This document shows positions 537 to 64,000 of a DNA stretch of 64,000 nucleotides, in pieces. Under the pieces are notes generated by a model. That model saw only the letters and a program-made list of their open reading frames with translations, was not told the DNA's origin and did no database searches. Each line of letters starts with the position of its first letter. Within the stretch, counting starts at the first letter, position 1. The stretch is from Antedon mediterranea (taxonomy: Eukaryota; Animalia; Echinodermata), in assembly GCF_964355755.1 (NCBI RefSeq), contig NC_092679.1, positions 6,292,201-6,356,200 on the forward strand, in the 5' to 3' direction. Made by a program: the position numbers and the translations under genes.

Positions 537-2613
537 GATCACAAATGGTTTTACATAGAGTTTCATTAATGCTTTGAAAGTCCTAAGTGATAAAACATCA
601 TATAATGACGTCACGTCAAGTTCAGGCAGTTACCGATGTGCATAAGATCAAGTATGAATGTTTAGTAAGCAGATCGAACCAAGAAAAGCACTCAGCCACG
701 ATACCATTCCTCATCTGTATCCTACTGCCTCTGTAATGAGAATCAATGCGTATCATCAAAATAACAACAAAGAGTGCAGCGTAATGATCTGCTGTATATA
801 CAAACAAAATAAAGACAATTATCGTTCTGTTTTAGCAGACAATGCTTGCTGGTGGTACAGCTTGAAAGAAGCGGGTATCTCGACATACTGTACTCTTGTC
901 GTTTCTCAACCTATTAGTCTTATAAATATCCGGAAAAGACCACTAAACGCAATTAAAATGTCAAGCAATCGGGTTAAAAGATTCCTTCCCGTCCAATCCT
1001 GCCCAACAAGTAGCCGCCTACATACAACGTCTAATAAATTGTATTCATCATATTATTAAGTACATTTATTCTTGGCCTTTGATCATAGTCGAACCGATGA
1101 CGCACATACGGCGTTCTTGGCTGTAAACCTGGATCAGATCGCTTCTATGTACTGCATTAGGTTTTTATAACACATTATTATACCCACAGAAATACATAAA
1201 TGTCGTAATTAGAATGAGTATAAACGGAACTATAAATCAAACAACCGGTCGCATAAATACTGTCCAAGGCAATCTAATAACATGATGCTGAACTCCGAAG
1301 ATCAAAATGTATATATCTGTGGCTGCAACACGATCAATTACACGCCCGCCTGACGCCGAGTATGTGCATAGTATACAGTACTGTTGGTATTTGTTTTTCG
1401 CAGCCAGCCATAAGATCAAAGGACCGTTACGAGTTCCTATCTTGGCAAGACGAGCTCAGTGTTTTTAGATTGTTTTGGTCTGACCAATATAGGCCTAAGT
1501 TGACAGAAGACAGAACGCACTATTTACCAGACGAGGCCTACCTTACCTATAACTCAAACGCACTCCTACTAGAGTAATACACCTGTTTAAGACACCATCA
1601 TACACTCGGCGTTCTATCGGCTCTAAGGCTTTTATAAATTACGGAATATAGTGTATTGCAGAATACATAAATAATTTATTGCACCAATCTACGCAATACA
1701 AGCAATTGAAATTTGATTTGAGTTTCATAGTCTGCAGGGAATACGGTATTGAATTATAATTGCGAGCGAGCGGCATGTCATGTAATACACTTTGGTTTTA
1801 GAAAATTATTATTTTATGTAAGGTTTTTGAAACAGCAGTTCCTTGTTGTACATAGACAATTTTCATCATGCGCTTGGGGGCGGGTGGAGTGTGGAGTGAG
1901 GGGAGAATCACCAGTGAACCAGAAAATAAACATGTAACACAGAACGAATTTGCTGGGTTTTTTTTGCACATTAATGGTTTAGGCTTCGAAAAGGGAGGAA
2001 TGTAGTGAGTTTCTTCGTCAATCGCCCCATCCAAAATGACCAACCTAGCCAGTGCATTCTGTACAAAAACAGTGATTGTAGTAGGCCTAGGCCCTAATAT
2101 ATATCAAATATTTGTTACGCTAAACATACAACAAAACGCATTCAAAGACGACGCCCCCTGCAACAAAAAGTAGCCTAACTTACGCAACTTATCGAAACGC
2201 ACATGAGACTGAGAGGAACTTGGTCAAGGAATATCGCCTTATCTGTCTATTTAGAGCAGTGTATACTGTATAGCCAAGGGCAACAGGAAACCGACTAGCG
2301 TACTTTACCAATAATATCAGTGTTATCCATATGTAATATTGTCTAAAAGAAAACAATTATTGACATGACACAATAGTAACACTATAGCATGAAGAAAGCC
2401 AATAGACAACAACAGACAACAATAAAGTCGAAATCCGAATTGACAATACATTATACAACACACTAAAGACGAAGAAAGCCAATATACAACAATATGAAAA
2501 ATACAATAAGTCGAAATCCTAATGAATTGATTAGTATATGTTTATGCAAAGTATGATAACAATGGCTTAGAAAAAAACAGGTATAGGCGGAAGCTTTCTT
2601 TGAAAATAAATAT

Positions 2614-3760
2614 ATGGTATATTATAATGTACTAAATTCAAGCTATTTATATTATGTAATGAACATGGATAAACACCGTTGGCCTAACTTTATGCTTAAT
2701 ACGTGTCTAAATTCAACTACAAATGTAGAACCACGCTATAAGCTGATTCCCAGTTTTGCTATGACGTGTGCGTCTATTAATATGAACATCGACTCAATTT
2801 TCGAAACTTTCTACCTTGGCAATGACCCTGATAGTCATTGGGTTAAGAGATTTAAAGAGTTGATGCATGACACAAACATTGCATTTTGGACAAGTGAAAT
2901 GCTAAGAAAATCGTCACTCCAGACATACTCTCTTATTAAGTCTAATCCGTGCCTTGAAAAATATTTATTGGATTGTACAGATTTTCTAGGATCTAGCCTC
3001 AAATTCAAACTACGTTCTAACACCCTTCCTTTAGGTCACAGGAGTTGTAAGTGGCTTCCTGAATATGATGGTAACTGTAAAATGTGTAAGAATGGTTTAG
3101 AAGACATTCAACATTTTCTATTCACATGTAACCAACTCAATGGCATAAGGATTGAAGAATATACCAAATTAGAATATATGTTAATCGATATCAATCATTT
3201 AGATGTATGGGAAAATTTTATCTCTGGTGACCTGAACACCAAATTAAATCTTGTATTAGGTGGAACTGATAACTATACTATCATTATATGTATGACGTCG
3301 ATTCCATATCAAATGTCTTTGATTGTTACTGTAAGCACTATGTTAACAGAGCATGGGCACACAGATGTATTGTTCTAGGCGAGTAATGTTCATATCAATC
3401 AAACTAAATGATTGATATCTATCTCACTAAATGATCGATATCTATCTCATTATAGTGTTAGGTCTACATTGTTGTTGCCCAATTCATTTTATATTGTACA
3501 GTTCCTACCTATTCTATTATTGTTTATTTCTTGTAATTTTGTATTTTTAGGTGTCAGTGGGTTTCCTGCTGCTGTAGTTTTAATTATCAATGGTATTGTT
3601 TTGACATTTTGACCTACGTCAACTTTTTATTGTAATTGTTATTTTCTATATCATGTTGTTTTGTTTTTTTGTACATTTCTTTTGGATGCACCTTCCATTT
3701 GGTTGAGTGCCACTGTTGTAAAAGTGTAATCTCCAAATAAATTATTATTATTATTATTAG
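2614..3760 (+). mobile_element. 5'-truncated non-LTR retrotransposon (LINE) 3' end
   Basis: ORF 2614-3378 contains KFKLRSNTLPL...CKMCKNGLEDIQHFLFTC, the CxxC..E...HFLF.C zinc finger typical of LINE ORF2 C-termini. It is followed by a T-rich 3' UTR ending in aataaa plus a (TTA)n tail at about 3737-3759. Confidence 0.8.
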
Positions 3761-7710: not shown

Positions 7711-9596
7711 ACAGACACCGCGCGCCGTGGATAAGTGTACGCTACATGAGTAATAGTACTGTTGGTATTTGTCGCAGCCAGACATAAGATAAAAGACTGT
7801 TACTAGTTCATAAGATAACAAGGCGAGCCCAGTGTCCTGTTGTTAGATTCCTTGGTGAAACATGCACAGCACACGGTAATAAACCTCTGCAGAAAATAGG
7901 GAAATGTCGGATCAATCATTGTGATGGCGGTATACTTATAATTATAAATATGGATGAATAATATTGATTACACCGACGATATGTATTAAAAAATAAACAG
8001 GAACAAATAACTATATAAAACTCGTGATAGTGTATCCGTATTCGATTCTCTCATGATTGTGAGTTAATTTCGATATAGGCGCCCTACTTTTAAGAAAAAG
8101 CCTTTCGAATTAATCCGATCCTCTGCTTATACTGTATTAGCATAAGCATTTTTTTAAATAGAAATTTAATAGCGCAAAGGCTTGTAACATGATGTACAAC
8201 TATAATAATGAGAATGACATCACTTTCAATACTTTTATCCGTTACCTTATACAACCAAAGAGAAATAAAGCGAATAGAAACTCGCCATTGACACCCACTG
8301 CAAATCACATGGTAAAAAGTAATATAAATATGATAAAACGGATTTATTTTAACATTCAGTATCAATCAACGTTCAGTCATCGGTAGGCTACAAGATACCC
8401 GTTACACACGACGTGAAGAGAAGACATACGCAAATAACATACAGTCGGTGCAAAATACGAAGAGGAACCAAATTCAGAAGATAATCTGGAAACACCAAGG
8501 TAAAATTAATTTCCAATAAATAATAATAAATAAATTCTTTTTAAATAATGTATTTTGAATTATTTGACATATTAAAATAACATCGATGTTTTTTTTTCGA
8601 TTTACTATGATGTTGGTTCACGGAGTTATATTATACCTCCATGGTTAGTTATGTAACTTTGTATGTAGGCCTAACAAAGCCCCGTATGTAGCATAAATAG
8701 GCCCGGAGAGCATGAACAACACACGTGTTCCGATAACTAACCCACAATCTGGATTTCTGATTGGCTGCTGAAACGTCACAATTATTTAACAATGGGTACA
8801 ATGAGGTTGGCAAAAAATGAAGATACAAGATTTTGAAGAAGCGACGATATAGTCTGTCTAGTCATATTAAGTATCATCCTAATTATGGGTTATTTTTACC
8901 CATAATAAATACTCTATAAATATTTTAAGTGCAAGTCTAGTGAGTATAAAAATTGGAAAAAATGCAGACTGAGGTCATCTAGTTAACTTAACCGGATTGG
9001 ATCCGGGGATTTCCCTTTTCATGGATCTTCTGTCGATCGATGTTTGGCCTCCTTGCCATGACAACATGACAAACACACGTTATCAATCGCTTGATTAAGG
9101 GCGTATAATATTAGGTAATTAGATATTAATAGGGGGGGGGGGGGGAATTTTTATTTTGTAATGATTTATTTTCATACGCTTGTCGCTTGTTTCTTTCTAC
9201 ATATAAAACAAGTGTATACTGGGATTTAGTGGAAAAGCAAAACGTAATCAAACTATTTCTTGTGATGTGCTCAGCCCATTACCCCGCAAGTAAAACAGTT
9301 TTACAGGATACAACAAAAATAACATGTTTTTTTTTTGTTGTATTTCGTGATTGTAAAATGTTGTTTTTCCACGGTAATTATTTGGTAATTTTCATATACA
9401 CGAGGCTGGATTTTATCGTATAAGGTTTATTGTAAAAAGTTGACTTTTTGTAGTTTGGGTGCAGATAAGGCGACAATCGGATTTGTTCATTCAAAAACAT
9501 ATTGATTAGATAAATAGGTCTACATAAAAGGCAGACAACCGTTGTATTTGTATTACACTACAATTATTTTCTCTCTTAACAGATACCAACCAAGGA

Positions 9597-10490
9597 ATGA
9601 TGGATGTACAAAATGTAAAAATCATTGCATTGTTTGTTCTTCTGTTTGTGTGCTTAGTATGTGGTCTACTACCGTTGCTATGTTTTAAAAGACGCACACA
9701 CAGACAAACTGCTATACTCAATTTCTGTAACTGTTTCGCTGCAGGAGTATTTTTGGGGACATTCTTACTTCATCTTTTCCCCGAATCGCAGGAAGAAATC
9801 AAAGAAGCATTTCATAGCGATTTTAAGATATGCGAGACGATTGTCGCGGCTGGTTTTTTCTTGATATTGCTCATCGAGTGTGTAGCTATTCAGTGTCATG
9901 GAGAAACGAATGCGCAGCATAACGACGAAAGTCGTCCAATACTTAGCGAACAAGCCTCTAATCACAACGAAACGAGTTGTGACGCGGAAGTCCACGATCA
10001 TGGCAACATCTTCGAGAGCTCATCTACTCTACGATCGTTAATATTTCTTCTGGCGCTTAGTGTACATTCACTTTTTGAAGGTTTCGCTGTTGGGATCCAG
10101 GAAACGGTATCGGAAACTCTGCAACTATTACTGGCAATCGGAATTCATAAATGTGTGTTAGCATTCAGTTTTTCTACTAACCTAGCACGACAATATAACA
10201 TGACTATGCTAATGAAGGTATTGTTTTTAGTGATATTTAGCATATCCTCCCCGATTGGTGTTGCGATTGCGATTGCTATTGCAGTATCTGCGCAAGACTC
10301 GAATCATGCTCTTAACGGCATTTTACAGAGTCTGGCATCTGGAACCTTTCTTTACATTATATTTATAGAAATAGTTCCGACGTTGCAATTACATAAGCAT
10401 CGTGGGACATTAAAAGCATTGGTTATGATGGTTGGGTTTTGTGTTATGATTGGACTGCAGTTTGTTGGTGAGGAGGGCCATCATCATTAA
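9597..10490 (+). CDS. ZIP (SLC39A) subfamily II zinc/metal transporter, ZIP1/2/3-like; CDS in a single exon
   Basis: 297-aa ORF with multiple TM segments and ZIP motifs NCFAAGVFLGTFLLHLFPE, a His-containing loop (HDHG), LALSVHSLFEGFAVG, AIGIHK, SSPIG and LASGTFLYI.F.EI. An acceptor ttttctctcttaacag (9582) lies just upstream, and a probable 5' UTR exon ends near 8499 (AAG|gtaaaa). Confidence 0.93.
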   Translation: MMDVQNVKIIALFVLLFVCLVCGLLPLLCFKRRTHRQTAILNFCNCFAAGVFLGTFLLHLFPESQEEIKEAFHSDFKICETIVAAGFFLILLIECVAIQCHGETNAQHNDESRPILSEQASNHNETSCDAEVHDHGNIFESSSTLRSLIFLLALSVHSLFEGFAVGIQETVSETLQLLLAIGIHKCVLAFSFSTNLARQYNMTMLMKVLFLVIFSISSPIGVAIAIAIAVSAQDSNHALNGILQSLASGTFLYIIFIEIVPTLQLHKHRGTLKALVMMVGFCVMIGLQFVGEEGHHH

Positions 10491-13400
10491 TCATCCAACA
10501 TGCTATCCAACCAATCTTCCAAATTACCTTCATCTTCATTTTTCTTTGAATTCACAAATTCTATAAAATGAAGTTAAGGTTTTATAAATATGACAAAACA
10601 AAAAAATGTTTGATAGTTCCATCAATCACCATAACGCATAAAATGTACTATCAATTTGGCTTTAATCATTATCATCATTCAAAGATGATTAATAAATATT
10701 ATACAGCAAGTAAAAACAAATACACATTTTAATAATGTCATTTATAATGATTATACTACTTAATTTTTTTTAAATGTATATAAATAAAAAATATTTTATC
10801 AACTTTTATGATTTTGTATATGATGAAATAAAACATTTTATATAACACCTAAATAAATTCCTGTCATTTGATTGGACGAATGTGGGTCACATGGCGTGCA
10901 ATAGTACGCACTATTCAACGATCGTTAAATACTACTTTTTTTTTTTTATTTAGATGTTATATAAAACAAATAATGAATGTTTTGTATTCGTGTAATGGTA
11001 CAAATAATGGCACTTGGTGAATGATGAAAGGTTATATCAACTCGGCTTTGCCTCGTTGATATAACCTTTCATCATTCACCTCGTGCCATTATTTGTACCA
11101 TTGCACTCATAAACATTCATTATTTGTATATTATTTGAAAATAATGTATATCCTTACCAGTTTTCTTTGGTTTTGATAATATACTTTCTTCCTCTTTTTC
11201 TATATTTACTGTAAAAACAAAAGTATTATTAAAGCATCAGCTGTAGGTTGTCAAAAAAAAAAGAACTACAAAACAAATAAGATCTATTTAGTGTTCTACA
11301 CCAAGTTTTAGTCTACGTTTTAGACGGTGATTTGGCACACATGGCGTTTCATACCTATACTTACCGTACTGGATCTGGTTAAAAACTAAAATTGAAATGT
11401 GTGGCATTCATAACATAACTAAAGGGTTGAGGCAAGTCTAAAATCAAGGATGTTAATTTATTATTACACTAACAGATGACATAAAAACCTACTTAATCTT
11501 CCAATCTTAAGAAGCGATACTTACATTCAGTTTCAGGTTCCTGGTTATTTTTATTCTGATGACGTGTTGTATTTATTGGGTTGTCTAAGCCTAATAGAAA
11601 ATCAAGTTCATCGTCATTATCTTCTTCCTCTTTCTTTTGTTGTACTTTAGGCTTTGAGATTGCCTTATTTGTACCGTGAACTGGATTTTTCCAATTTATT
11701 CCAGTTCTATCCGGTTCAGCAATCATACTGCCTACATTTTTCTCACTTATTCCAGTTCTATCCGGTTCAGCAATCATACTGCCTACATTTTTCTCACTTA
11801 TTCCAGTTCTATACGGTTCAGCAATCATACTGCCTACATTTTCCTCACTTATTCCAGTTCTATCTGGTTCTGACTGGTTTATTGTAGATTTGATCACTGA
11901 TTGTTTTTTACTATATATTTCAGATTTATGTAAAGAAAAATCAAATGTCTCTTTTGATGCATCAACATTAAATATAACATCTGGTTTTCTTTTTTTCTCA
12001 ACTTGATCGGGAAAATTTGTTTCAAGACATGGATCTGTTTTCATTTCTTCTTCTCTTGAATTCTGAATACCCGAATCCTTTTCATAAATCTACAATTAAA
12101 GAAAGATATAGATAATGTAAAAGTGTAAATAATGTAAAACATAATAGGGAGAATAAATGATGCAGTACATGCAGTAGATCAACATTCAAATCGAAATACA
12201 TTTCCCACTACAACGTTGCATACATTTGTTGTCTATAATAATAATATCCTGGATTTATATAGCGCCTAATGTTGTGAAACCTCTAAGCGCTGAACATTAT
12301 TACCACAGTCATTTTTTTAGATCAAACACTTATGGAAACATACTCCCATAATGCAGCTGGTAATCAGCGCAAAGTTGTGTTTTGATCTTACCAGGTTTCC
12401 ATTTATATGTTGTGGTAAAGTAAATTTAAACACTTACAGTGAATACTTCTTCATCAATATTCAGTCTTTGTGAGATTGGAAGACACTGAAGCTGAGTGAC
12501 CAATGACTGGACATTTAGACAAAGAAAGTCTGAATTATCCTGTAAAAAAGGAGATTATGAATACTTGCCCTCCAATGAAATTCACTATTGGGAGTATAAA
12601 ACTAATAACACAATGTTCAATTCTGAGCATGTATAGTGTATTATGGATATACAGTATGACAATCCTGACGCAAAACATTCAAGATATACTTTAGTACCAT
12701 ATTTATTCATATGATTATAATAAGAAACTGTTATAAAGTGCTATTTACTGATGTCTTAGATCATTAAAAGACAAACAAAAAGGTGAAATTTTAGAAGGGA
12801 CTTGAATTGCTTAAGATATTTATGGAGTGAAAGCTGGTTCCAAACCGATGGTACTTGTGCAAAAAAACCTAAGATTTAAGGTGTCTTTTTGGAGTAGATT
12901 AAAGAAGAGGGTCCATATCAGAACAATTTCACAAAAACAACTCTTTTACGGCCTTAGTTTTGAGATTATAGGTCAAAGGTCAAAGATGTTGGGTCATTTT
13001 CGTGAAAAAGTTCTTATTAGACTGAATAGAAACATATACCTTCAGATTAATTTGAGCCCTATTTAAAGTTTGTCCAACTGTTAGTTACGGAGTTATATGA
13101 TATGTAGGTCAAAGGTAAAAAATGCCAAAAATCATACTTCCGGCCATTTTTGGACAAACTTTTCCATTACACGAATATTAATATGCATCTCCCAAATAAT
13201 TTGACACTAAAATTATTTCATTTAATCTAAGCGTTGCAAAGATATGACGATTTTGTTTTCAATGGGTCAAAACATTCAAATTGAGGTCAGAGGTCAAAGA
13301 TGAATTTTAGAAATTTGACAACATGGGTTTTTATAACCAGCATGATTCAATTATTCATAAAACACAATGTTTACACTTTCCCCATGATCTGCACACGAAG

Positions 13401-15236
13401 GCACTTTTTTTGACATAGGGATCAGGGGCCGGATTTATCAAACTTGCTTAGCAAAAAAATCGTCTTAACTTTGCCTTAAATCCTTGATTTTGCCTAAGTC
13501 AGATTTATCAATATATCTAAGCAAAAAAATTTGCTTAATTTTGTCTTAAATCTAAGACGAAAAACACCCTGCCTTAAGATGAAAAATTTCGTCTTATCTC
13601 ATTTCTGCAACAGAAACATTCTTTTTTGACAACGCGAGCGCGCTAAGCCGGAACATTGAACATTCGGAAAGGCTACGCTAGTGCGTTTTACGCTGTACTA
13701 CGGACGCTAAAATAATGATATCGATCTTCACAAAGATGGCCTAGAAATTGGACGAGCAAAACTAATATTTTCGGGATAGGTACGACCCAATTGACTAGCT
13801 TTTAGAAAACTGTATCGGCTGCCAAGCAAGGGTCGCTGTCATTGATAAAAATAAATAAATGTTGATTTGATTTAAGTTTAGAGCGAATGATTTTCGTATG
13901 TATTTCCGACTGTTGTGCTCTTTCTCTATTTCAAGTAATAAAAACAATAGTAGCCAGAATGCGCCCTCTCTTGTTGGGAGTGAAAATACGGAGATAAAAT
14001 GTTATAGCGCCGCCATCGCTAAGAGAAAAAAGCTAATACGCATGCGTAAGCAAGAATTTTTCGTCTTAAGACATAATTTGCTGCCCTCTAGAGTTTAATT
14101 TTGCGCATGTGCAAAGTAAAATTTACCTAAGACAATTTTTCTGCTAAGACATTGCTAAGACGGTTTGATAAATAAGATTAAGTTATTTGCTTAAGCACTT
14201 CTTAAATATTTCAGCTTAAGCAAAAATATAAGCAAATATTGATAAATGCCAACCCTGGACTACTTTATCATAATAAATGCCCTTACTTCCTGATAAACGT
14301 CATCTTGCCAGTCTTGTTCATCTTTGAAACGAAACTGTGACGACGAATCTTCTGCAGAAAATGTAACAGTTTCAAGGTTTAAAATCATATCAAGCCATAT
14401 TAGCCTAAACTCTGTCACACTATCAAACATTATGTGACAAAACAAATGTAATGTGCCCATATATGGACATGATGATGCTCTTACTAGCACCTGATAAACA
14501 CCATATTGTTATTCACTCACCTTCTTTAGAAAGTAGGACATTAAAATCAGCACCTCTTATTTCTACTTTGTCATCATCTTCTTCTATGTCACCATATCGG
14601 TTCCAGTTACTCTCAATTTTGCGCCTTGAAAAAGACTTTCTTTCCTGTAAAATAGTTATGAAATATTATACATATACGCATGGCAAGAAGAAGAAGTACT
14701 TACTTTTAAGTAGTTAAAAAAGATTGGATAATATTAATATTGTAATTAATATCCCTTTCCTACTACTGTCTGTCTGTATTACTACTATAGTACTAGTAAC
14801 TAGTTATATAGTAGTAGGCTATGCCTATATATATTATAAAATATAAATCAATTATTATTGTAAAGTTTATTAATAGTAATTACTGTATTATAAATTAAAT
14901 AATATACAGATAAAAAAAAATAGTACAGCAATTGATATTAGTGCATATTCTCTTAGCGTACGCTAGGCCTGGTAGACATACCCCTGACTCAGATTTCAAT
15001 CCTTCGCTACTGCTGCTGGAAGCGGACTGTTGAGGCGAGTGACTATCAACACCGTGCCGGCCGTGAGGCCTACGAATAGTATTACTGTTATCAGGTTTCT
15101 GGTGGCTACTTTTGCTACCACTTTTTCCATCATCGTTTACAGACTTTTTCTTTGAACCACTAGACTGTCCCTGTCCACTTTTCCCATGCTTATTTTTCTG
15201 GTGCTTCCTAATTTTTTGGTGTTTTTCAGGTCTCAT
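10487..15236 (-). CDS. AVEN: Cell death regulator Aven; 7 coding exons (15236-14982, 14644-14521, 14351-14287, 12539-12438, 12089-11525, 11208-11158, 10560-10487), 411 aa
   Basis: All introns are GT-AG with compatible phases (total 1236 nt). Conserved Aven blocks are FSRRKIESNWNRY, RGADFNVLLS, SSSQFRFKDEQDW, LQCLPISQRLNI, DELDFLLGLD.P and C-terminal LEDWLDSM. Confidence 0.9.
10835..11130. mobile_element. Palindromic non-autonomous element in the last AVEN intron
   Basis: Long hairpin ataaaacaaataatgaatgtt..ggtgaatgatgaaaggttatatcaac / gttgatataacctttcatcattcacc..aacattcattatttgtata. A related partial copy lies at about 27100-27270. Confidence 0.7.
11695..11867 (-). repeat. 57-bp coding tandem repeat x3 in AVEN exon 5
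   Basis: Encodes EPDRTGISE(E/K)NVGSMIA three times plus a partial copy; the units are nearly identical. Confidence 0.9.
13422..14257. mobile_element. Non-autonomous DNA transposon in an AVEN intron
   Basis: Imperfect inverted termini caggggccggatttatcaa / ttgataaatgccaaccctg, with subterminal repeated cttaa/ttaag motifs (ttgctta, taagcaa, taagac) at both ends. Confidence 0.6.
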
Positions 15237-62600: not shown

Positions 62601-63015
62601 CAGTATTGCTTTTATCAGTCATTTTAAGAAACAAGAAATCTTTATTTACGGAGCATATAAATGTACAATAATTGAATTATGCCTTTACAATTATGATTTA
62701 AAGTGCAAAAGTTCAAATATGTAATAATTGAATAGCAATTTCAACTTGCATGTTTTGTGTTCCAAGAACTAAAAATAGACAGTGCTGAAATCGGTACCAG
62801 ATAACAATTGTTGCTCACAATTTATTTTCCAGCGGTATGCGTTCCGTACTGTAAAAATGGTGGGAAATGTGTGCGTCCAAACTATTGCACATGTCCTACG
62901 GGATACACTGGAAATTATTGCGAAAGGCAAGCCATATCGTCCACGAGAACTCAGTCACAACCGGTGGGCGGATATAGACAGCTATCCGTTTACCGAACGT
63001 CGTGGAACTACAATA
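53685..63015 (+). CDS. 5' part of an LTBP-like (fibrillin/LTBP superfamily) secreted EGF protein; exons 53685-53818, 62064-62134, 62833-63015; continues beyond the window
   Basis: A signal-peptide-like exon ([27 protein letters not shown]) splices in phase to [23 protein letters not shown]|[31 protein letters not shown]. This matches the LTBP 4-Cys domain plus first EGF pattern (N.CG..CC.GW......CTKP.C.P.C.NGG.C.RP..C.C..G..G..CE). All junctions are GT-AG. Linking the first exon is less certain than the two Cys-rich exons. Confidence 0.78.
55560..55721. repeat. About 42-bp tandem repeat x4
   Basis: tctgtagtataaacgggcctttggcagtcggtaattgtt repeated. Confidence 0.85.
59957..60140 (+). mobile_element. 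Degenerate copy of the tRNA-derived SINE
   Basis: Collinear with 36778-37000, with internal deletions. Confidence 0.75.
61727..61955. repeat. 22-bp minisatellite x10
   Basis: ctgatgactccttttcagtgtt repeated almost perfectly. Confidence 0.92.
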
Positions 63016-64000
63016 GTAAGTTTAGATCCGAAAATTTCTTTTGATCTTAACTAACATTTGTTCTTGTTTTAATATTTGAAGCGGTACCAAAACCATTAAC
63101 AGCTAACTTATGCCGCATGCCTATCAGTGCGCCAGATAATTTCCCCAGATCGACACAATATGAATTGTTTTTTTCATTCTCGCTCAAAACATTAACAACG
63201 CTTGAAAAGTATTACCGGCTAATATCAAACATATTGTGCATGTGTAACAGCATGATCTTGCAGATATACTAAGTTTATTTACTACTAACAATTTTTTAAT
63301 AACTAGCTTTTATGGAAGTGTGACAAACGAAACATCTTTACAGTCAACAAAATCCCCAGTTTAGATTGATAATAGTAATTTTACTATGCATAATTACAGA
63401 GTACAGTAGTCTGTGAATACTAGCGTTCTTTGTATCAACGTGAAGTTTAAACTTGAGAATAAAATCCATGAATGGATACAATTATTTTATATTTTGTGGG
63501 ATAAATAAATTGTTTCAATGTTATATAAAGAAGTTATTCTTGAATGCAATAGGGAGTTAGGGTTAGAGTTGCAATATTATTGATTAACACCCTAATTTAA
63601 AAGGACAGTTCTATGGTTCTTGACATTTTCTACAAATGTTATTGTTAGAGATTATTTTTACCAAGGAATTGTATTGTAGGAGGTACCATACAGTAGACAA
63701 ACCATATAATATAAAACTATTATTCATACTGTAATGTCTCTTACTTACACTAGTATTATTATTAAGTGAATTATAATTATTTAGTTAAATTATTTTACAT
63801 GTAAATGTCATAGATTGTGAATCTAGTATTTATGTACAGTATTGCATTACTATTATCTCAATTAATCGATAAAATAATCAATCAATCAATCGGTGAATTA
63901 AGTGAAATAGTTATTGGAAATAATTATGATGCATAGAATAGATCCATGTTATGTTAATACTAGTAGATCTATGTCAAAATCTATTTATAGTATTCTTTGG

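Follow-up and report, generated by a model that had tools for sequence, protein, structure and literature searches.

A predicted ZIP transporter gene and an AVEN gene end tail to tail on a shared TTAA in the crinoid Antedon mediterranea

In the available part of PMC2330155, overlapping genes are put at 4-8% in human, mouse, zebrafish and worm and at 26% in fly, and convergent pairs are the commonest class of overlap in human, mouse and fly, with 153 of 328 human pairs kept in mouse. According to the same portion of that source, overlaps between two coding sequences are strongly under-represented in animals. For prokaryotes, the available text of PMC2174442 describes 4-bp convergent overlaps in which two stop codons interlock as CTAA, TTAA, CTAG or TTAG, and gives mutation of a stop codon as their origin.

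The window, which is the whole stretch of 64,000 nucleotides of Antedon mediterranea that was analysed (NC_092679.1, 6,292,201 to 6,356,200), contains two protein-coding genes, here called ZIP and AVEN, that lie on opposite strands, tail to tail, as a convergent cis-antisense pair (Table 1). Like the convergent and embedded overlaps of animals in the available part of PMC2330155, the pair has 3' ends that overlap on opposite strands and, probably, exon-exon complementarity; unlike the usual animal overlaps treated there, its coding sequences touch (4 nt) and one open reading frame likely lies wholly under the terminal exon of the partner. The geometry is that of the prokaryotic stop/stop overlaps in the available text of PMC2174442, and the origin, by reading on to the next stop, is probably also the same, but the setting here is one of spliced animal genes, thinly spread and in a genome that is not compacted, whose transcripts end by polyadenylation rather than at terminators. 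The ZIP-AVEN locus is thus a convergent or embedded cis-antisense pair, uncommon for an animal but of a kind already known, and it offers a clean case, in an animal whose genome is gene-sparse, of the 4-bp stop/stop overlap familiar from bacteria. Retrogenes inserted antisense into the 3' region of a host gene are a further known class. ZIP resembles them in its intronless coding sequence beside the host stop codon and its probable non-coding 5' exon, and differs from them in that no parent, poly(A) remnant or target-site duplication was found and in having an orthologue in another crinoid.

Table 1. Features of the ZIP-AVEN locus, in window positions
Feature	Position	Strand	Basis
Candidate non-coding first exon of ZIP	8375..8499	+	Motifs alone: Inr-like TCAGTC at 8373-8378, donor-like AAG/GTAAAA at 8500
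Likely AVEN 3' UTR (1.9 kb or more), covering the ZIP ORF and the sequence 5' of it in antisense	8601..10486	-	X1 contig, unstranded, one run
Splice-acceptor-like site (pyrimidine tract and CAG), 14 nt 5' of ZIP ATG; inferred end of 5' UTR intron	9560..9582	+	Motif
ORF of 297 aa in one coding exon, ZIP1-3-like zinc transporter (SLC39A subfamily II-like)	9597..10490	+	Pfam Zip, identity to Anneissia
ZIP C-terminal tail FVGEEGHHH, with E293G polymorphism at 10474	10461..10487	+	Anneissia orthologue ends 6 residues earlier; X1
TTAA, overlap of the two coding sequences, 4 nt	10487..10490	both	Sequence
AVEN exon 7 (74 nt), the final coding exon	10487..10560	-	Joined to exon 6 in X1
First AATAAA 3' of ZIP stop, candidate ZIP poly(A) signal	10691..10696	+	Motif; within AVEN last intron
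AVEN exon 6 (51 nt)	11158..11208	-	Loose end of X1 contig matches with one other letter
AVEN exon 5 (565 nt)	11525..12089	-	Gene model
AVEN exon 4	12438..12539	-	Gene model
AVEN exon 3	14287..14351	-	Gene model
AVEN exon 2	14521..14644	-	Gene model
AVEN first coding exon	14982..15236	-	Gene model

The ZIP coding sequence ends CAG TTT GTT GGT GAG GAG GGC CAT CAT CAT TAA, with its stop codon at 10488-10490, and on the opposite strand AVEN ends in LEDWLDSMLDD followed by three stop codons, TAA TGA TGA, the first at 10489-10487. A single YTAR tetramer therefore terminates both coding sequences, and re-reading of these four positions upheld the claim of the preliminary description that the two genes converge on interlocked stops. 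The overlap of 2 nt given there has to be corrected: only the stop codons have 2 nt in common (10488-10489), and the coding sequences overlap by 4 nt, because 10487 closes the final His codon of ZIP and 10490 the final Asp codon of AVEN. The stretch was present in five sequencing runs, none recorded as RNA, of which X1, X2 and X5 were compared; X1 was taken as RNA-type on the strength of its spliced joins. The overlap is not an assembly artefact, because DNA-type contigs of X2 (7820-10861) and X5 (9329-10861), two runs of one sample, cross the junction and X1 is unchanged from the window there.

Any gene that ends in a pyrimidine followed by TAA or TAG carries a stop codon on the opposite strand. 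AVEN ends in Asp, as GAT-TAA, and the TTAA with its opposite-strand TAA therefore arises automatically; GAT-TAA was also present in one of ten other AVEN ends (L008), with no ZIP match in the 515 nt downstream of it. In 100,000 simulated trials, in which a frame ran towards the AVEN end through a random spacer drawn from window DNA, the frame stopped exactly at the overlap TAA in 29, 25, 22, 17 and 8% of cases for spacers of 6, 12, 18, 30 and 60 nt. Were the TAA absent, the ZIP frame would continue for another 26 codons, to 10569. It is the closeness of the two genes that is uncommon, while the TTAA itself, given that closeness, is common (8-29%). The region around the pair is not visibly compact or gene-dense: Pfam matches were found in 2 of 114 further window ORFs of at least 62 aa, a screen that misses short exons. 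Such packing had been called unexpected beside multi-kb introns; the closeness is indeed unusual, but the AVEN introns measure 169-1,747 nt and are not multi-kb. A piggyBac target site was also considered for the TTAA and ruled out, since there is coding sequence on either side.

Pfam Zip (PF02535) matched ZIP over residues 7-287 of 297 and profile positions 3-322 of 323 (E 6e-51). The motifs HSLFEG and IHK are present, and H157, E161, G162 and H184 were invariant in all 11 aligned sequences; the match to BbZIP structures was weak. In ZIP proteins the conserved motifs of the fourth and fifth helices are metal-site motifs. A full Zip domain with these motifs identifies the gene as encoding a ZIP1-3-like (SLC39) transporter, for which transport is predicted from the sequence. 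Identity to the Anneissia japonica protein XP_033127827.1 was 59% over 292 columns, and the second ATG of the ORF (9600) lines up with the start of that protein. Compared with one X1 contig, the ZIP coding sequence showed 5 substitutions in 894 bases (3 synonymous, H123D and E293G), and the 996 bases upstream on the same contig showed 19 (Fisher p 0.012). The sole coding indel was of 6 nt and in frame, while three of the four upstream indels were of 1 nt. This pattern points to purifying selection on the ORF, and the tail tolerates the E293G polymorphism. A 6-bp repeat (3.7 copies, 10261-10282) lies within a ZIP transmembrane segment (AIAIAIA); X1 and X5 have one unit fewer, in frame.

The NCBI model of ZIP, XP_071963421.1, has 228 aa and is labelled partial: it begins MWSTT from another frame at 9659 and ends at Q288 (9659-10460). 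It is without the first helices and the tail, and the full ORF is thus unannotated. The overlap appears to have disturbed the gene caller, and the present reading corrects the annotation of an incomplete model with a wrong start and no tail.

The seven-exon AVEN model encodes 411 aa with no mismatches to XP_071962111.1 of A. mediterranea. This record is named uncharacterized at NCBI, and the name AVEN was taken from relatives. The best non-self match was the Anneissia 'cell death regulator Aven-like' protein (E 3.8e-63), one of 46 matches that all carry the precomputed family PF28377; a Pfam search of the model with a local copy matched no Aven family. An SRRKIESNW core and a C-terminal LEDWLDS motif mark the protein as AVEN, and WLD occurred in the last 12 residues of 151 of 192 AVEN relatives. 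In vertebrates, AVEN has an anti-apoptotic or DNA-damage function. All six introns are GT-AG and the last two were removed in X1, which bears out the LEDWLDSM end with sound splice sites proposed earlier. The ends of both coding sequences had been considered genuine, and this view also stood, given the reach of the Zip profile, the agreement of the AVEN model with the NCBI protein and the WLD ends of its relatives.

Several features of the AVEN gene were noted in passing. Exon 5 contains a tandem repeat of 51 bp (11685-11870; 3.6 copies at 94% match) whose 17-residue units are absent from the Anneissia protein. NCBI isoforms of 410 and 411 aa differ by one Glu at the border of exons 2 and 3 (14351/14521), as a splice site displaced by 3 nt would produce. 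A candidate micro-exon at about 11365-11374 was rejected, being absent from the X1 contig and the NCBI isoforms. The last intron holds a high-copy repeat at about 10840-11140, MITE-like by appearance, with a long hairpin at 10995-11101, a short way beyond the candidate poly(A) signals of ZIP; the only Rfam matches were two sub-threshold miRNA matches on this hairpin.

One X1 contig of 2,236 nt joins part of AVEN exon 5 (11761-11525) to exons 6 and 7 and then runs unspliced from 10560 to 8601, crossing the entire ZIP ORF with no branch into the last AVEN intron. The AVEN 3' UTR likely covers the whole ZIP ORF in antisense, and counts over ZIP in unstranded RNA-seq would then really be AVEN reads. 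Alternatively, the contig may fuse two transcripts, an unspliced ZIP mRNA and a short-tailed AVEN mRNA. Any 3' UTR of either gene necessarily overlaps the partner gene. The preliminary description had made antisense 3' UTRs obligate; the two mRNAs would indeed overlap if both are made, and the X1 contig fits the AVEN side of this claim, but no transcript specific to ZIP was seen. Between X1 and the window there were 29 differing places of many kinds, including four A>G and one T>C, with no DNA run of the same individual to compare.

For ZIP itself, motifs predict a promoter of its own near 8375, a non-coding exon, a 1,083-nt intron and an end at the AATAAA in the last AVEN intron. The start was placed by the Inr consensus. 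The donor-like site was one of six that scored equally, and the acceptor one of two strong acceptor-like sites in 7800-9620, with no joint at 9582 in X1. The predicted joined leader is 139 nt long with no ATG, and the unspliced leader contains 22 ATGs. Nearly all of the ZIP unit, as drawn, would therefore lie inside the AVEN gene. X1, the single RNA-type run, contained no ZIP-specific transcript feature, whether splice joint or 3' extension. It has no cover at 10562-10830 and 8199-8375, a gap that carries no weight on ZIP expression. A second X1 contig (296 nt) rejoins 8636 to 8376, going back 261, within window positions 8376-8639, and the adjacent contig differs at 8631 and 8633; the joint is probably due to a diverged tandem duplication allele in the X1 sample. 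It falls 1 base past the putative Inr-like start and is absent from the listed X2 and X5 pieces.

In Anneissia japonica, the longest contig is 1,110,646 bases both for ZIP (XP_033127827.1) and for AVEN (XP_033127756.1), and the two accessions are 71 apart. The chance of a shared contig is about 0.2% in a genome of 553 Mb (available part of PMC7351957), or about 4% if a chromosome of about 25 Mb is conserved; the Antedon chromosome bearing the pair measures 25 Mb. The same-sized contig and the accession numbers suggest adjacency in Anneissia, and the ZIP-AVEN neighbourhood is likely old in crinoids. The Anneissia AVEN protein ends in LEDWLDSVLDD, much like that of Antedon. The Anneissia ZIP protein, from a record not marked partial, ends in GLHYVE against GLQFVGEEGHHH in the window and is 6 residues shorter. 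The exact interlock is probably not shared with Anneissia because of this shorter tail, and the comparison of the two protein ends makes it likely that the TTAA interlock is recent. Anneissia probably shows the state before the overlap, and the birth of a coding overlap may thus be traceable within crinoids. His-rich tails were present in 2 of 33 other ZIP proteins (Ptychodera, ...PHHH, and P0018, ...HHHGH), and the Antedon tail could therefore be ancestral or selected, with that of Anneissia truncated. The available part of PMC13079724 gives no divergence date.

Outside crinoids, AVEN and the listed ZIP were on contigs of different sizes in Mizuhopecten (1,095,232 and 891,077 bases) and in Lingula (1,194,379 and 1,648,614 bases), though the ZIP proteins of these two may not be orthologues. 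There was no Ptychodera AVEN among the nine AVEN representatives examined. Metagenome contigs scanned with the ZIP protein gave no relative in 118 candidate stretches, and when they were scanned with an AVEN-end pattern, none of ten loci, apparently from two animals and nine of them near-identical, had a ZIP match in the 515-1,500 nt downstream.

The reading that we prefer, with a probability of about 0.6, is that an old crinoid ZIP gene lies antisense in the AVEN 3' UTR, that its tail was lengthened onto a ready-made TAA, and that the two genes have their own promoters and tolerate interference. Retroposition or DNA duplication in a crinoid ancestor would have put ZIP just 3' of the AVEN stop, and its tail would later have been lengthened by about 6 codons to the first in-frame stop, which the AVEN GAT-TAA supplies from the other strand. 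Each protein would be made from an mRNA of its own, and the shared TTAA itself would therefore be without effect. Some transcriptional interference would be a likely consequence, tolerated if, as we infer, AVEN is broadly expressed and ZIP is low or limited to other cells or stages. Against this reading, the available part of PMC2330155 has overlaps between coding sequences strongly selected against in animals, and persistence may need more than drift. The adjacency, orientation and spacing of the Anneissia genes come from contig size and accessions, the direction of change of the tail could be the reverse, the X1 contig carries no strand information and comes from a single run, and it was by motifs that the promoter, the first exon and the poly(A) site of ZIP were placed.

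The preliminary description had also suggested a retrocopy or an insertion into the AVEN 3' UTR. The intronless coding sequence agrees with that part of the proposal, but a recent retrocopy is unlikely because no parent was found in 34 matches, because a poly(A) remnant could not fit behind the stop, and because the orthologue is on the AVEN-bearing Anneissia contig. In an older form, a spliced ZIP mRNA would have been inserted antisense behind the AVEN stop in the crinoid ancestor, acquired a promoter and a 5' exon, and had its poly(A) and 3' UTR removed by a later deletion. Such an account bears on origin only and is compatible with the preferred reading; we consider it possible, though unlikely. 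It would account for the single ORF, for a long stem branch (1.08) leading to the Antedon and Anneissia pair, and for the AVEN ends of two other animals that have no adjoining ZIP (all ten loci, nine near-identical). The branch comes from a quick tree of 34 rows, from which P0001, the window's own partial model, was left out, and which resolved only the grouping of window and Anneissia, giving it no sister group. On the other side, there was no crinoid paralogue among the 34 matches with E up to 1e-20 in a word-limited search. AVEN coding sequence stands directly behind the ZIP stop, leaving no poly(A) remnant or target-site duplication, though an old insertion could have lost them. The absence of introns is weak evidence, as ZIP1-3 genes are generally intron-poor anyway.

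A regulatory role for the arrangement is quite doubtful. Under it, the AVEN 3' UTR or read-through would repress ZIP, by polymerase collision or through duplex RNA that gives rise to siRNA or to A-to-I editing, zinc or stress would shift the balance, and the overlap would have been selected. The geometry permits about 1 kb or more of exon-exon complementarity, the linkage is apparently kept in Anneissia, and convergent overlaps are the best-conserved class between human and mouse in the available part of PMC2330155. X1 shows AVEN-type features only, which agrees equally with mutual exclusion and with silence. Against this, the X1 differences are of many kinds, and the interlock seems lineage-specific. 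Among the titles and abstract openings listed by literature searches, none tied AVEN to a ZIP gene or concerned the ZIP-AVEN pair. The earlier proposal that the overlap couples zinc uptake to an anti-apoptotic regulator found no support, in view of the lack of a ZIP-specific feature in X1 and the shorter Anneissia tail; the common stop is more likely incidental than a switch linking zinc to cell death.

A stronger version, which we hold very improbable, is that the entire ZIP unit, from promoter and leader exon through the intron to the ORF, is embedded in antisense in the AVEN terminal exon and has been kept across comatulids since AVEN read-through or the 1.9-kb 3' UTR gates ZIP. If this were true, zinc uptake would be turned on or off by alternative polyadenylation of AVEN or by stress, and a conserved cis-link would tie zinc supply to cell survival, with possible relevance for arm regeneration. 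Antisense gating would connect zinc uptake with a survival factor, and nothing found points there.

It is extremely unlikely that the AVEN 3' UTR merely carries a copy of ZIP that is silent or in decay, as the lack of a ZIP-specific splice or 3' extension in X1 and a partial NCBI model with an other-frame start and an end at Q288 might suggest, in view of a full-length open frame with HSLFEG and IHK, its 59% identity to an intact Anneissia orthologue, the lower substitution count in the coding than in the upstream sequence, and a coding indel that is in frame.

Elsewhere in the window, an open frame on the - strand at 333-533 (beginning MGSHGNKRSF, with a hydrophobic stretch) resembles the opening exon of a type II membrane protein that continues beyond the left edge and had no Pfam match. 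On the + strand, a 263-codon open frame at 2587-3378 with a zf-RVT match (E 1.3e-5) is the end of a LINE-type element, and an exon at 62805-63041 encodes an EGF-like domain (Pfam EGF_2, E 8.4e-6).
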